Assembly: GCA_964016885.1 (NCBI GenBank)
Contig: OZ024740.1
Span: forward strand, 271,188,001 to 271,252,000
Length of the DNA stretch: 64,000 bases
Direction of reading: 5' to 3'
From: Eledone cirrhosa
Lineage: Eukaryota
In this document: positions 1,014 through 24,335 of the stretch, one piece after another
How the letters are laid out: each line of letters begins with the position of its first letter
How positions within the stretch are numbered: the first letter of the stretch is position 1
The notes under the pieces: generated by a model
Told to the model about the DNA's origin: nothing
What the model saw: the letters and a program-made list of their open reading frames with translations, nothing else
Databases searched by the model: none
Position numbers and translations under genes: made by a program

Positions 1014-1064
1014 AGTTTAAGCAAAGAATCGCTGCTTTCACCCTTAACGGGATCTTCTGAAACT
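1014..1064 (-). ncRNA. Type I hammerhead motif, CAGAAGA core variant
   Basis: agttt CAGAAGA t CCC-gttaa-GGG t GAAA GCA..TGC T T aaact, then AATAAA. Confidence 0.7.
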
Positions 1065-1212
1065 AACAAAGTCAATCTGTAAACACAAAAGTGGATATTT
1101 CAAAAAACGTTGCAACCGGAGGAAGACAGGAAGACGATACTTTGGTTCGTAGAAACGTTCCCTGGCAAAGAACGTGAAAAAACGAATATAATACGTCATT
1201 ATTTGGAGCGGT

Positions 1213-1322
1213 TAACCAAATTCCGCCGAGGATAACTTTGCCTTTCATCCTTACGGGGTCGATAAAATAAAGTACCAGTAATGCACTGGGTAATTGCTGG
1301 CCTTGTGCCTAACGTAGAAACA
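1213..1322 (+). mobile_element. 5'-truncated SINE inserted into the left Penelope arm
   Basis: 15-bp TSD attatttggagcggt at 1198-1212 and 1323-1337. The empty site is present in the right arm (about 4014-4028). Confidence 0.9.
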
Positions 1323-4161
1323 ATTATTTGGAGCGGTGAAAAACAATTACACGCAAAGACAGAACCACGTTTATGGTATAAATGAAGTCGTAGACTAATA
1401 TTCTCTTAGGTGGTTCATAGAGACGTTCTCTGGCAATGAATGGAAAAAACGAAAATAATACGTCATATGTGGAGCGTGGAGAACAATTGCACGCAAAGAC
1501 AAAACCACGTAAATGGTATAACTGAAGTTGTAGACTAAAATTCTAACTAGGAAACCGAATGATTCTCCGCTTCAGAGTAAAGAATAAAGTAAATAAAATA
1601 CAGAGGTAATTGAAATTAAATAAATACATACACGCATCCAAATACGTACATACACAAGCATACGCGAAAACACTCGCCATAGGTATACAAATACACGCAC
1701 ATATAAATATGTGTGTGTGTGTGTGTGTGTGTGTGTGTGTGTGTGTGTGTGTGTGTGCGTGTATATGTGTGTGTGTGTGTGTGTGTGTGTGTGTGTGTGT
1801 GTGTGTGTGTGTGTGTGTGTGTGTGTGTGTGTGCGTGTATAAAAATAATTAAATAAACGTATATAAATAAATAAACGTATATAACAAGCGCACACACATA
1901 CCTACATGTAAATACACAAATGTTCGGAGATGTACGTCAACCAAAACACGAAGTACACATATACACACACCCTACATACGTACGAACCCGCATACTCACA
2001 CAGGCTCAAAACTCACGTCTATACATAACCAAAAGCATATGTACCAGAATATATAAAATATACGCCATAACATATACAATCAAATATACGTACGAGAAAG
2101 TATACGTACCTTCACAAAACATACAGGTAATATATACTTACCTATGCAAATAAGTAATGGTATAAACATAACATATACTTAGCTACCACATCAAGACGTA
2201 AAATATCCGCGTATGGATCGTACTATCCGTTAGGGTATAATGTGGGGCTGTAATACAGGAAAGTTTTGTGCAATTTATGTTTACAAGCCTAAATTGCCTC
2301 AGATTTTTTGTTTAAGATGTGGTCTGTGGCGTAGAGTATTTCCAGGGCCTCAGCGGCGCAGAGGTCACATGGTCTTTTATTTCCGTTATACGATCTAGCC
2401 CTAGCTAGGATCTCCCAGTGTAACTTATATTGGGTGTGGTTGTCTTTTAGACTCCAGATATAAGCTGAAAGTGAAGTCATATTCCTTCTTAGAGGGTAAC
2501 GAAAAGAATGGGTATGCATGTAAAGACGCTGCTTGAATCTCTTGGCGGTTAACCCTATGTAGGCCCTACGGGACGTGGGTGTTTCAACCTTACATTTGTA
2601 GACAATGTTACTAGAGAGGCATTTCCCGGATAGGGGGCAATCAACCCGATTCCTACAATTACAGTTAGTACTAACTACAGCGTTGCACGTGTTCCTACGG
2701 CTAGGTAGTTTAGCTAAATTTGAAGCTGTGATGTTATGTGCAAGGTTAGGAGTCGTAGAGTAAGACATTTTAATACTATTTCTATTAAAAATGTTACTAT
2801 GTTTATGTGTAGGGGGAAATGCTTCGTAATAAGGGATAGAAAGATCTTAGCTAATGGTGTGGCCACCTCCATATTATATGGTGGGTTATACCATATAAAA
2901 ATCCACTCCGAGCAAGAGCTTCATTGTAATATGTGGAATTGTCGTTGAAAATATGCTCGTTAGTAGATAGACGGGAAAGCCTCAACGAAACGTTTCTTAC
3001 CAGGTTCTTGGTTATGTTGGGAGATCCTAGCTAGTACTAGATCGTATAACGGAAATAAAAAACTATGTGACCTCTGCGCCGCTGAGGCCCTGAAAATACT
3101 CTACGCCACAGACCACATCTTAAACAAAAAATCTGAGGTAATTTAGGCTTGTAAACATAAATTGCACAAAACTTTCCTGTATTACAGCCCCACATTATAC
3201 CCTAACGGATAGTACGATCTATACGCGGATATTTTACGTCTTGATGTGGTAGCTAAGTATATGTTATGTTTATACCATTACTTATTTGCATAGGTAAGTA
3301 TATATTACCTGTATGTTTTGTGAAGGTACGTATACTTTCTCGTACGTATATTTGATTGTATATGTTATGGCGTATATTTTATATATTCTGGTACATATGC
3401 TTTTGGTTATGTGTATACGTGAGTTTTGCGTCTGTGTGAGTATGCGGGTTCGTACGTATGTAGGGTGTGTGTATATGTGTACTTCGTGTTTTGGTTGACG
3501 TACATCTCCGAACATTTGTGTATTTACATGTAGGTATGTGTGTGCGCTTGTTATATACGTATTTATTTATATACGTTTATTTAATTATTTGTATACACGC
3601 ACACACACACGCACACACACACACACACACACACGCACACATATTTATATGTGCGTGTATTTGTATACCTATGGCGAGTGTTTTCGCGTATGCTTGTGTA
3701 TGTACGTATTTGGATGCGTGTATGTATTTATTTAATTTCAATTACCTCTGTATTTTATTTACTTTATTCTTTACTCTGAAGCGGAGAATCATTCGGTTTT
3801 CTAGTTAGAATTTTAGTCTACGACTTCAGTTATACCATTTACGTGGTTTTGTCTTTGCGTGCAATTGTTCTCCACGCTCCACATATGACGTATTATTTTC
3901 GTTTTTTCTGTTCATTGCCAGAGAACGTCTCTATGAACCACCTAAGAGAATATTAGTCTACGACTTCTTTTATACCATAAACGTGGTTCTGTCTTTGCGT
4001 GTAATTGTTTTTCACCGCTCCAAATAATGACATATTATATTCGTTTTTTCCCGTTCTTTGCCAGGGAACGTTTCCACGAACCAAAGTATCGTCTTCCTGT
4101 CTTCCTCCGGTTGCAACGTTTTTTTAAATATCCACTTCTGCGTTTACAGATTGACTTTGCT

Positions 4162-4212
4162 AGTTTCAGAAGATCCCGTTAAGGGTGAAAGCAGCAATTC
4201 TTTGCTTAAACT
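4162..4212 (+). ncRNA. Type I hammerhead motif, CAGAAGA core variant (further copies 21474-21522 minus, 23519-23569 minus, 24265-24315 plus)
   Basis: Same fold as 1014-1064. Stem I agttt/aaact. Confidence 0.7.
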
Positions 4213-21522: not shown

Positions 21523-23052
21523 ATATATCTTATAAATAAATAAATATATATATATATATATATATATATATATATGGTATATGCTTTCACGTATACCCCC
21601 CCCCCCCCCCTAATGTTCCATGATATATATATATATGTATATATATAAATATATATATATATATATGAATATATATATATATATATAGAGAGAGAGAGAA
21701 AGGGAGAGAGAGAAATAGAGAGAGAGAGGGAGAGAGAAAGAGAGAGGTGTGCGTTGAAGTGAATGTATTTATGTATATATATATATATATATATATATAT
21801 ATACATATACAAACACACACACATATATATATACATAAATACATTCACTCCAACGCATCCCTCTCTCTTTCTCTCTCCCTCTCTCTCTCTCTCTCTCTCC
21901 CTCCCTCTCTCTCTCTTTCTTTCTCTCTCTCTATATATATATATATGTAGTGTATGAGTGTACGTATATTTGTTTGTGTGTGTGTATATAAATTTCATTT
22001 GAATTCACTTTGTCACTCTGGCGTTATTCTAATTTTCTCTTATTTACACCTTTCTTGAAGTGACGTCAATTACGCGTGTTCATTTGTAGTTCTTCTGTTA
22101 GTTACCCTTGGCACTGAGCCACATATCTGAAGAGAAACTTGTGTAAACACTTGTATTGTTTTTAGTGTAACAGTAGCGCCTATTTATATATATATATATA
22201 TATATATATATATATATATATATATATATATATTTACACAGATAAATCCACCAATTAATGGTAGGGTCTAAGCCGTATGAAGAACTCAATGTAATCCGTA
22301 TGTAGAAGATGTGAGGCAAAGTTTAAAATACAACATTTTCAACGATATAATTCATTGGATACAGAGTCAAAAATACAAATAGTAAAACAATGAAATTAAA
22401 CAAAAATTGGTTAATTCATAGTAAAACTCATTATTTTACGATCGTTTCTGGGGGGTAGTTTCCCGTATGTTCATTCTATTATTGATCTATGTAAAATATA
22501 TTACAAAATATCATAGTAAGAAAATATACATACGTCTTCACTACCCGCCATATGCATACGTCTTCACTACATATTTATATTTAAATATATATATATATAT
22601 TTAAATATATATATATGTGTATATATATATATATATATATATATATATATATATATATATATATATATATATATATATATATATTAGAAAGTGAGGGTTT
22701 TTTTACAAAATAAAAAATAACCGAGGTGTCCTACACGAGTGAAAGTATAAAGAAAAAAAGATGAATTCGAAAATGCAACTGGAGTCTTATTTTTTTTTAA
22801 ATATATATATTTATTTGGTTCCTTTACCGGTTTCGCAGTTCTTCTGCTTTTCAAAAGTAGAGTTGAGACATATATATATATATATGTGTGTGTGTGTGTG
22901 TGTGTGTGTGTGTGTGTGTGTGTGTGTGTGTGTGTGTGTGTGTGTGTGTGTGTGTGTGTGTGTGTGTGTGTGTGTGTGTGTGTGTGTGTGTGTCAAGGCT
23001 CTGATACCATCAACACTATAAACACAGAGCTGGCATATCTAAGAACTGACTA

Positions 23053-23108
23053 ACTGCCTGATGAGGTCATAGCCATTCAATGGCTATCATCGAAATATAT
23101 ATAGCAGT
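23053..23108 (+). ncRNA. Type I hammerhead ribozyme motif
   Basis: actgc CTGATGA GGT c ATAGCCAT-tca-ATGGCTAT c ATC GAAA tatata T A gcagt. AATAAA at 23110. Confidence 0.85.
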
Positions 23109-23407
23109 AAATAAAGGATTATGAGTTCATGCAATTGACTTATGTTTCGTCACTATATATATATAAATGTTCGGTGAATCCATACGTACATGTATATATG
23201 TGTGCATGTATGTATATATATATACATACTACTGTACGTCTGTATACATATATGTATGTACGTATACATACTTATATTTTAAGTAACAGCCGTACTAAGA
23301 GTGAGTTGCTTAAACTTTAATCTGTTATTTAATAAATATATATATATATATATATATATATATATATATATATATATATATATATATATATATATATATA
23401 TATATAT

Positions 23408-24335
23408 AGTATTAGTAATAAATGTGAAGACTAAAATCCAAAGAGGGCTCGATAAGGATAAATATATATCAAATATATAAGAACCGTAGACCAAATATTT
23501 ATTAAAATAACAGATTAAAGTTTAAGTAAAGAATCACTGCTTTCACCCTTGACGGGATCTTCTGAAACTAAAAAAATCAATCTGTGAACGCAGAAGTAAA
23601 TATTTCGAAAAACGTTGCAGCCAAAGGAAAACAGGAAGACGATACTTTGGTTCGTGAAGACGTTCCCTGGCAATGAACGGAAAAAAAACGAAGATAATAC
23701 GTCGTTATGTGGAGCGCTGAGAATAAAAACACGCAACGTCGACGTTTATGGTATAAATGGAGTCGTAGACTAATATTCTATTTATGTGTATTTGGTGTAT
23801 ATGTTCGTATGTGTGCGGGTATATGTGTCGCGCGGGTTTATGTACGTGTGCGCGTGTTTATATGTACGTGCACGTATATGCATGCATGGCGGGTGTTTTC
23901 GCGTAGGCACATATATGTACGTATATAGATGTGTGTATGTATATATTTAATTATTATTACTTTTATGATTTTAATAACCACTGTCATTTTCGTTCTACTA
24001 ATTTATTTACATGATTTTTAACTCCAAAGCCTAGAATCATTCGGTTTCCTAAATAGATTATTAGTCTACGACTCCATTTATACCATAAACGTGGTCTTTG
24101 CGTGTATTTATTCTCCTAAATCCACATAACGACGTATTATCTTCGTTTTTTTTTCGTTCATTGCCAGGGAACGTCTTCACGAACCAAAGTATCGTCTTCC
24201 TGTTTTCCTTCGGTTGCAACGTTTTTCGAAATATTTACTTCTGCGTTCACAAATTGATTTTTTTAGTTTCAGAAGATCCCGTTAAGGGTGAAAGGAGCGA
24301 TTCTTTGCTTAAACTTTAATCTGTTATTTTAATAT
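23408..24335. mobile_element. Non-coding inverted pair of Penelope pseudo-LTRs (same family as 993-4325)
   Basis: 23505-23780 and 24058-24333 are reverse complements, both similar to 1000-1560. Extra tail at 23408-23500. Flanked by (TA)n. Confidence 0.88.

Follow-up and report, generated by a model that had tools for sequence, protein, structure and literature searches.

A hammerhead-like motif with adenine at core position 4 throughout an abundant family of Penelope-like elements in Eledone cirrhosa

Hammerhead ribozymes of Penelope-like elements (PLEs), the Hydra clade of these elements and natural variants of the hammerhead core are already known. Here we describe a motif of this kind that recurs in a 64,000-nt window of the Eledone cirrhosa genome (contig OZ024740.1, positions 271,188,001 to 271,252,000, forward strand) and belongs to a PLE family in which adenine replaces uridine at position 4 of the core. 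Its closest described relatives are the hammerheads of Hydra-clade PLEs such as Hydra-1_aJap, Hydra-1_cRog, Penelope-5_HM and Hydra-1_oBim, which are likewise of type I and reside about 10–180 nt from the 3' end of a short, single-open reading frame (ORF) element associated with (TA)n (Craig 2021, PMC8557442). All 26 Hydra-clade rows in File S2 of that publication have the core letters CUGA, and 14 of the 26 read ctgaNgaT...Tgaa; helix II often has 3–4 bp, the letter at the cut site is often U, and the motif always lies near the 3' end. According to our comparison, which was made by eye without an alignment, the Eledone motif shares ...GAAGA followed by U, a helix II of this length, a U ahead of GAA and a cut-site U, and the accompanying protein shares DKT and CxCX5C and the lack of CCHH. 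It differs in having A instead of U at position 4, in contrast to 26 of 26 rows with CUGA, and in helix III, which is ACNN, a 1–3-nt loop and NNGU, often palindromic (dimer type), in the listed Hydra-clade motifs but A-GCAG, a 7-nt loop and UUGC-U here. The element is also somewhat longer, about 3.26 kb compared with the 'generally <3 kb' stated for the clade (PMC8557442). The earlier note had singled out a U-U pair at 10.1/11.1 and a 3-bp helix II. Both are present, but they do not set the family apart: since 14 of the 26 Hydra-clade rows share U...U and helix II is often 3–4 bp long, these are traits of the clade, and a natural U10.1-U11.1 mismatch has already been reported as active (Perreault 2011, PMC3088659). 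Judged from the sequences, what is special here is only A4 and the longer, non-palindromic helix III.

Three further described systems and one from the same genome are informative. The minimal PLE hammerheads of Cervera and de la Pena (2014) have in common with the Eledone motif their location in PLE flanking repeats, massive numbers of solo motifs, close inverted pairs and an additional nucleotide that separates A9 from helix II. As described there, G10.1-C11.1 is highly conserved, helix III is minimal and palindromic, and U3-A8 is the sole core variant named. The Eledone motif does not belong to this dimer type, for which helix III of 1–2 bp with a small palindromic loop and G10.1-C11.1 would be expected; it has 5 bp, a 7-nt loop and U/U at 10.1/11.1. 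The natural core variants of Perreault 2011 (PMC3088659) resemble the present case in being rare changes at conserved core positions in a genomic context; they comprise U3-A8, A6C, A6a, U13a, U15.1-A16.1, 2a/2b insertions and U4C, and U4A is not named in the text of that paper, its figures and supplements aside. In the Poseidon PLE of Anolis, as in the family studied here, two internal reverse-transcription start sites delimit a tail that is optional; insertion in vitro does not require the hammerhead, and no reads are described as ending at the hammerhead cut site (Frangieh 2024, PMC11167929). Poseidon differs in that it belongs to another clade, has a canonical core, carries its hammerhead overlapping the start of the ORF and has a tail of 30–40 bp as opposed to about 88 bp here. 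Finally, the Eledone genome harbors a canonical-core family of PLE type with the layout GCC-CUGAUGA-GUCC...GGAC-GAAAC-AUU-GUC|GGC, i.e., with U4, G10.1-C11.1 and a 2-bp helix III. Its copies also have (TA)n tails and a tandem junction to a 5' end reading TTTTCGGCTC. Within 1.5 kb of it we saw no PLE ORF, and the family may be non-autonomous. It passes the Rfam model RF00163 (19 of 74 scored matches above the cut-off) and has about 3,000 copies, compared with more than 21,000 for the A4 family. PLE promoters are located in the pseudo-long terminal repeat (pLTR), as stated in a review (PMC6765202).

All coordinates below refer to the whole window. The heptamer CAGAAGA is found at 1053–1059 (−), 4167–4173 (+), 21513–21519 (−), 23558–23564 (−), 24270–24276 (+) and 29808–29814 (+), that is, at all six places, five copies and a remnant at about 29803, for which the earlier note had claimed it; another occurrence at 29769–29775 (−) is the inverted partner of the remnant. 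The heptamer is enriched in the window, with 20 occurrences versus 6.3 expected, a number attained in none of 100 shuffles. The helix layout is numbered on the copy at 4162 (copy 2):

4162–4236, + strand: motif copy 2, with the core at 4167–4173 and A4 at 4168; the short 3' end of the element is 4236
4162–4166 and 4208–4212, + strand: 5' and 3' strands of helix I of copy 2
4147–4152, + strand: distal helix I, CAGAUU, with its partner at 4215–4220; the 9-nt internal loop varies between subfamilies
4174–4186, + strand: helix II of copy 2 with its U flanks, followed by GAAA at 4187–4190
4191–4205, + strand: helix III of copy 2, followed by U16.1 at 4206 and U17 at 4207
4237–4324, + strand: optional tail leading to the long 3' end, ending in ...ATTATTACTA and followed by (TA)n
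991–1064, − strand: motif copy 1, A4 at 1058, with the short 3' end and then (TA)n
21362–21522, − strand: copy 3, beginning at TTCAGAAG, A4 at 21518, with the long tail and within (TA)n
23388–23784, − strand: copy 4, second subfamily, A4 at 23563; it carries the long tail and forms an inverted pair with copy 5
24050–24339, + strand: copy 5, second subfamily, A4 at 24271, with the short 3' end
29769–29850: remnant comprising two partial motifs in inverted orientation, with CAGAAGATCC at 29775 (−) and at 29808 (+)

The copies were read directly and aligned. In copy 2, helix I is formed by AGUUU and AAACU and continues across an internal loop into the distal pairing CAGAUU/AAUCUG. The core letters common to the copies are C3-A4-G5-A6-A7-G8-A9. 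Helix II with its flanks reads U-CCC-GUUAA-GGG-U and precedes GAAA, while helix III (A-GCAG/UUGC-U) consists of 5 bp closed by the non-palindromic 7-nt loop CRAUUCU. The predicted cut lies at 4207|4208. Intact copies thus present three helices in the type-I order I-core-II-GAAA-III-H17-I, and they depart from the conserved hammerhead core at position 4 only, all remaining core positions being in agreement. A type-I descriptor of our own, in which position 4 was left free, matched the two intact copies at 4167–4207 (+) and 1059–1019 (−) with helices I/II/III of 5/3/5 bp. The copies at 21474, 23519 and 24265 each carry one private change that breaks one pair of helix III. The monomer-type helix III proposed earlier is present in its length and loop, and in copies 3, 4 and 5 it lacks one pair. 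In the + copy of the remnant, helices II and III were lost by internal deletion. When 20 Mb of Markov-random sequence served as a control, the descriptor gave no canonical match, one relaxed match and none with these stem lengths, so that the chance of a relaxed match is about 0.006 per window. We conclude that the motif is homologous to hammerheads because of its type-I layout, the rarity of chance matches, its 3' position and the clade signature of U...U, A7 and U17.

The adenine at position 4 is a property of the whole family. In the window's own genome of 3.0 Gb, the exact 26-mer around the core (TTC-A-GAAG...GAAA) occurs 21,743 times, whereas the same word with C, G or T at position 4 occurs 831 times; among the first 100 of these listed, 83 have T, 13 G and 4 C. 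All 11 T matches examined proved to be the reverse strand of head-to-head pairs joined at the core, where the junction ...GGGATCTTC[A/T]GAAGATCCC... reads CAGAAGA on one strand and CUGAAGA on the other, and the single C match examined comes from a normal copy that has undergone one point change. A canonical sister subfamily with U4 as the source of the 831 matches was rejected on these grounds. In 30 near-identical young loci, 39 of 41 motif instances have CAGAAGA and the other two are altered at a different core position with A4 kept. The same holds for 12 copies with an intact ORF, in which all 21 motif instances have A4 (19 CAGAAGA, one CAGCAGA and one TAGAAGA). An alternative letter of 5% or more at 4168 was absent from the contigs of four runs labelled as three organisms. 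The earlier note had claimed fixation of A4 and had named the opposite outcome, U4 in full-length active copies with A confined to one dead sublineage; as young loci and intact-ORF copies all keep A4, the claim of fixation, full-length copies included, is borne out.

The head-to-head pairs deserve a remark of their own. Hundreds of them, about 83% of the 831 matches, share the exact same junction inside the core, and other inverted pairs have their junction at 4162 or close to 4190. A cDNA-to-cDNA template switch may be guided by the TTC/GAA microhomology around position 4.

The family is a coding one, in agreement with its earlier description as a coding Penelope family. A search with the 193-nt 3' end of the element gave 1,036 first-look candidates, and the 40 that were scored are 98–100% identical over their length. 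A protein search yielded 32,621 candidates, and at least 29 of the 113 scored lie in open frames of 712–714 codons. The full element has a single ORF, and the unit from motif to motif in tandem arrangements measures 3,255 nt. In 12 of 12 retrieved copies the full frame is present and encodes 709 amino acids from the first methionine. Motif instances in these intact copies are located about 189 nt ahead of the frame and about 930 nt past its end; the upstream pLTR motif is present in 8 of the 12. Both tandem and inverted arrangements were seen in the family. The translation contains HSDKTGN (DKT), RLRWHAF (RLRW) and NCNCRNRVDC (CxCX5C), and an endonuclease part VYKCKV...YIGLT that has no CxxC inside GIY...YIG and is surrounded by CDLC (CxxC) and CKH (CxH). 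This part is 39% identical (E 4e-29) to the window segment 19915–20304 (−), which has a sub-threshold Pfam GIY-YIG match. The look-alikes found in the Atlas are animal proteins of 690–750 residues with GIY-YIG, RVT_1 in one cluster, which we take as a lead only; a sequence search of solved structures with the element protein gave no match. Hydra-clade hallmarks as given by Craig 2021 (PMC8557442) are a C-terminal GIY-YIG without CCHH, CxCX5C, DKT rather than DKG, RW(K) and a (TA)n target. Because the protein hallmarks and the insertion into (TA)n, which follows both 3' ends of the element, match that description, we assign the element on sequence features to the Hydra clade of PLEs. The single-ORF protein, the shortness of the element, the pLTR with tandem and inverted arrangements and the hammerhead near the 3' end all agree with this assignment.

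The motif has changed less than its surroundings. The two subfamilies present in the window differ by no diagnostic change in the 74-nt motif but by 15 in the 122 nt upstream (Fisher p 0.0007), although private, post-insertion changes are similar in the two parts (9 in the 122 nt upstream, 6 in the 74-nt motif). This comparison of sequences therefore suggests constraint on the motif in the source elements. In the contigs of run X1, minor letters reach 5–6% at four sites of the motif, while positions 4040–4160 have twelve such sites at 8–43%. Of the four motif variants, two are CpG decays, a third is a loop change and the last turns G-U into A-U, and the pairs touched by common variants turn from C-G to U-G and from G-U to A-U. 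Six further subfamily variants differ in the 9-nt internal loop of helix I and leave helices and core unchanged; these six rows were selected by an exact core match and are thus biased toward an intact core.

Copies of the element have two 3' ends, ...TTTTAATAAATA at 4236 and ...ATTATTACTA at 4324, about 88 nt further on, which lie 28 and about 116 nt past the predicted cut. Copies 2, 3 and 4 have the tail between these ends, whereas copies 1 and 5 lack it. What comes after either end is (TA)n or, where copies stand in tandem, the 5' untranslated region TTTGGCTCCC...ATG. A common 5' boundary exists as well. When the first 66 core matches on contig 1 were cross-matched by eye with the list of upstream 26-mers, 23 lacked the upstream word, of which 16 have a 5' boundary within 4157–4168 and 7 are sequence variants. 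All 4 of 4 copies starting at A4162 have an extra G. Genome-wide, 2,538 copies have a letter other than T before A4162, and G stands there in 55 of the first 100 listed, in AT-rich flanks. Contigs of run X1 have 3' boundaries at 4236 in 137 cases and 5' boundaries at 4161/4162 in 106; the kind of the run contigs is not on record, and starts, ends and expression are unreadable from their depth or breaks. An extra G at the 5' end is what a reverse-transcribed cap usually leaves behind. We take the TTAGTTT at the motif edge to fit the initiator consensus. Because the 5' ends cluster at 4161–4165 with an extra, untemplated G, the edge resembles an initiator and PLE promoters lie in the pLTR, the copies suggest a capped RNA start at A4162, where helix I begins. 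They also suggest that solo units of 75 nt and about 160 nt are full copies of a short RNA rather than random truncations. Contig depth rises from 4150–4160 to 4205–4215 by about 13-fold in the small run X4 and about 2.3-fold in X1, a change that is not readable as expression.

Whether A4 permits cleavage was approached via copy ends and the literature. For the A4 family, 26-mers spanning the cut site number 36,329 and those downstream of it 30,361; of 68 sampled downstream matches, 8 lack the spanning word and one of these 8 is bounded at 4207/4208. As the canonical-core control family, with 2,866 spanning and 3,164 downstream matches, also has almost no excess, such end counts are uninformative on cleavage. 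The complete mutational scan of Roberts 2023, as far as it concerns the CUGA turn, gives low activity for every mutant, single or double, except the C3/G8 swap, and U4 contacts the A6-N7 phosphate according to the text of Perreault 2011 (PMC3088659). A4 is therefore likely to weaken or abolish self-cleavage, a prediction that draws on these published data. Lack of cutting need not harm a PLE. Catalytic mutants of the Poseidon hammerhead are described as unaffected in insertion in vitro, PLE hammerheads are described as cutting poorly in vitro (both Frangieh 2024, PMC11167929), and Naiads are said to thrive without canonical hammerheads (Craig 2021, PMC8557442). The earlier note had left a choice between an active non-canonical ribozyme and a fold kept for a non-catalytic role, such as recognition by the reverse transcriptase or 3' processing; published mutagenesis and the conservation of the motif among subfamilies lean toward impaired cutting and another role.

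On balance we hold it probable, by our own estimate, that the motif is a hammerhead homologue with a core likely crippled, situated at the capped 5' end of the RNA and upstream of the priming sites, and kept by selection for a role other than cutting. Transcription would start at A4162, and each full-length RNA would carry the motif twice, at its capped 5' end and again shortly upstream of both reverse-transcription start sites. Given the stable helix III of monomer type, cutting by an intact core would strip the RNA of its cap and of the priming region alike. A4 is expected to abolish the uridine turn, so that the RNA would remain whole, and the motif would likely be kept as a non-cleaving cis module at the start and near the end of the element RNA. 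The short units of 75 nt and, with motif plus tail, of about 160 nt would each represent a short RNA, begun at the shared start site and copied in full. A more specific version, which we consider possible though short of probable, holds that selection disarmed the hammerhead: helix III became stable enough for cutting as a monomer, U4 then changed to A, and the uncut fold serves as a cis signal for the Hydra-clade reverse transcriptase.

Several points weigh against a conserved, non-cleaving hammerhead fold in a Hydra-clade element. Pfam, applied to the ORF pieces and to the intact 709-residue protein, recognised neither the reverse-transcriptase nor the GIY-YIG domain. Rfam Hammerhead_1 and its clan gave no match at gathering score in the window, nor at E<=10 on 4080–4300, while the hammerhead model does detect the canonical-core family elsewhere in the same genome. 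The minimum-energy fold (−15.6 kcal/mol) is a rod and not a three-way junction; the best fold with the hammerhead pairs has −14.7 kcal/mol, a gap too small to discriminate. No compensatory base-pair change was found in the subfamily comparison, in which the motif is invariant, or in that of run X1. Conservation could stem from a promoter function at the DNA level, as the motif lies just downstream of the putative start, or from repeated template switching at the 3' end. The consensus of loose ends before 4162 in run X1 has no terminal G (agreement 0.49). Counting copies that start at the cut site was rejected as a test of cleavage for its lack of power, the control being likewise flat. Finally, a natural U4C viroid variant stays infectious, its activity being sufficient in vivo as reported in the text of Perreault 2011 (PMC3088659), and position 4 is therefore not absolutely required.

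The last point leads to an alternative that we regard as unlikely, namely that the A4 motif is a working ribozyme in which contacts between the internal loop of helix I and loop II, together with the stable helix III, offset the lost uridine turn, with a slow or regulated cut at U17 processing tandem read-through. It gains from the persistence of the remaining core letters, A15.1-U16.1, H17 and the three helices across subfamilies and in more than 21,000 copies, and from the hammerhead-containing fold lying only 0.9 kcal/mol above the minimum. Efficient monomeric hammerheads have, among their features, a stable helix III and a helix I that extends across an internal loop, in the accounts of Cervera 2014 and Perreault 2011 (PMC3088659). 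The latter also describes, besides U4C, other natural core variants that retain low activity or shift metal preference (A6C). The low activity of CUGA-turn mutants in the scan of Roberts 2023 argues against such a ribozyme, as does the comment on structure in PMC3088659, from which a purine would be expected to be unable to supply the N3-H contact of the uridine turn. Furthermore, copies almost never start at the predicted cut site, a weak test in view of the canonical control, and the sequence to either side of the scissile bond is present in every retrotransposed copy.

We are about equally doubtful that the motif is a dead relic without any role at the RNA level, in which A4 was neutral in the founder and the block was kept as an internal promoter or initiator or homogenised by template switching at the 3' end. 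With a start at the first motif base the motif would indeed be promoter region +1 to +75, in keeping with the pLTR location of PLE promoters (PMC6765202); covariation is lacking, and hammerheads may merely parasitise PLEs, as is considered in Craig 2021 (PMC8557442). On the other hand, three helices and 12 of 13 core letters are intact between subfamilies that are 12% apart just upstream. A need for a promoter would not obviously keep helix complementarity, a point made weak by the invariance of the motif. A chance look-alike that is not hammerhead-derived and folds as a rod in the 3' untranslated region is very improbable: the missing Rfam match, the pairing of UUUCA with UGAAA in the rod, to which A4 contributes one A-U pair, and a folding z-score of the motif region of merely −1.05 would fit it, but the descriptor found only about one relaxed match per 20 Mb of control sequence, and both the position and the clade-specific U...U, A7 and U17 fit Hydra-clade hammerheads.

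The motif copies of the window are embedded in larger arrangements of the element:

990–4236: head-to-head pair of two 5'-truncated element copies, arms 990–2424 and 3011–4236, 96–98% complementary
2289–2846, − strand: C-terminal part of the element ORF with the CxCX5C linker and the GIY-YIG-type endonuclease, in the centre of the 990–4236 pair

Copies 4 and 5 constitute a second inverted pair, 23388–24339. Copy 3 is flanked by direct repeats of about 33 nt (GGGGTATAYGTGAAAGCATATACCATATATA...) at 21262–21296 and 21566–21600, which are a long target-site duplication. The window also contains a canonical-core type I hammerhead at 37449–37490 (−), GAGCUGCA-CUGAUGA-A-GGGU-GAU-ACCC-A-GAAA-C...G-UC|UGCAGUUC, with an 8-bp helix I, which was matched by the descriptor and is unreported by Rfam at gathering score. 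A diverged second PLE at 19710–21240 (−) is a 5'-truncated, decayed copy with linker and endonuclease of the same type and is adjoined by a 339-nt tandem repeat (18899–19564); a 3' hammerhead of this second PLE was not found. A short repeat with a tRNA-like end (...GGCGGGATTTGAACTCAGA...) occurs in both orientations at 1217–1289, 14337–14412, 15736–15808, 16940–17012, 24364–24436, 25042–25114, 30252–30327 and 31052–31127 and is probably a short interspersed nuclear element (SINE) family.

A full-text literature search, which took in neither Lunse 2017 and Ruffner 1990 nor the figures and supplements of Perreault 2011, found no description of an A4 hammerhead. What appears to be new, as far as the texts searched go, is an A at position 4 that is fixed in a family of this size. 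In practical terms the whole family escapes Rfam models and CUGANGA descriptors. The finding bears on the role of hammerheads in PLEs, a standing question in the field: of the PLE families seen in this genome the most successful one, with at least 21,743 core copies, dozens of intact ORFs and about ten times the copies of the canonical-core family, has altered a nearly invariant core letter, yet its motif otherwise stays the same from one subfamily to the other. This amounts to a natural experiment, in which either catalysis is dispensable in vivo with the fold kept or the A4 core is catalytically competent. In the latter case the hammerhead consensus used for searches would widen. If, on the other hand, the element needs no cutting, it would have spread without hammerhead self-cleavage. 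A disarmed cis signal, if this version is true, would explain the tens of thousands of element copies and of solo copies of 75 nt and about 160 nt, and would be an in vivo demonstration of a non-catalytic job for PLE hammerheads.

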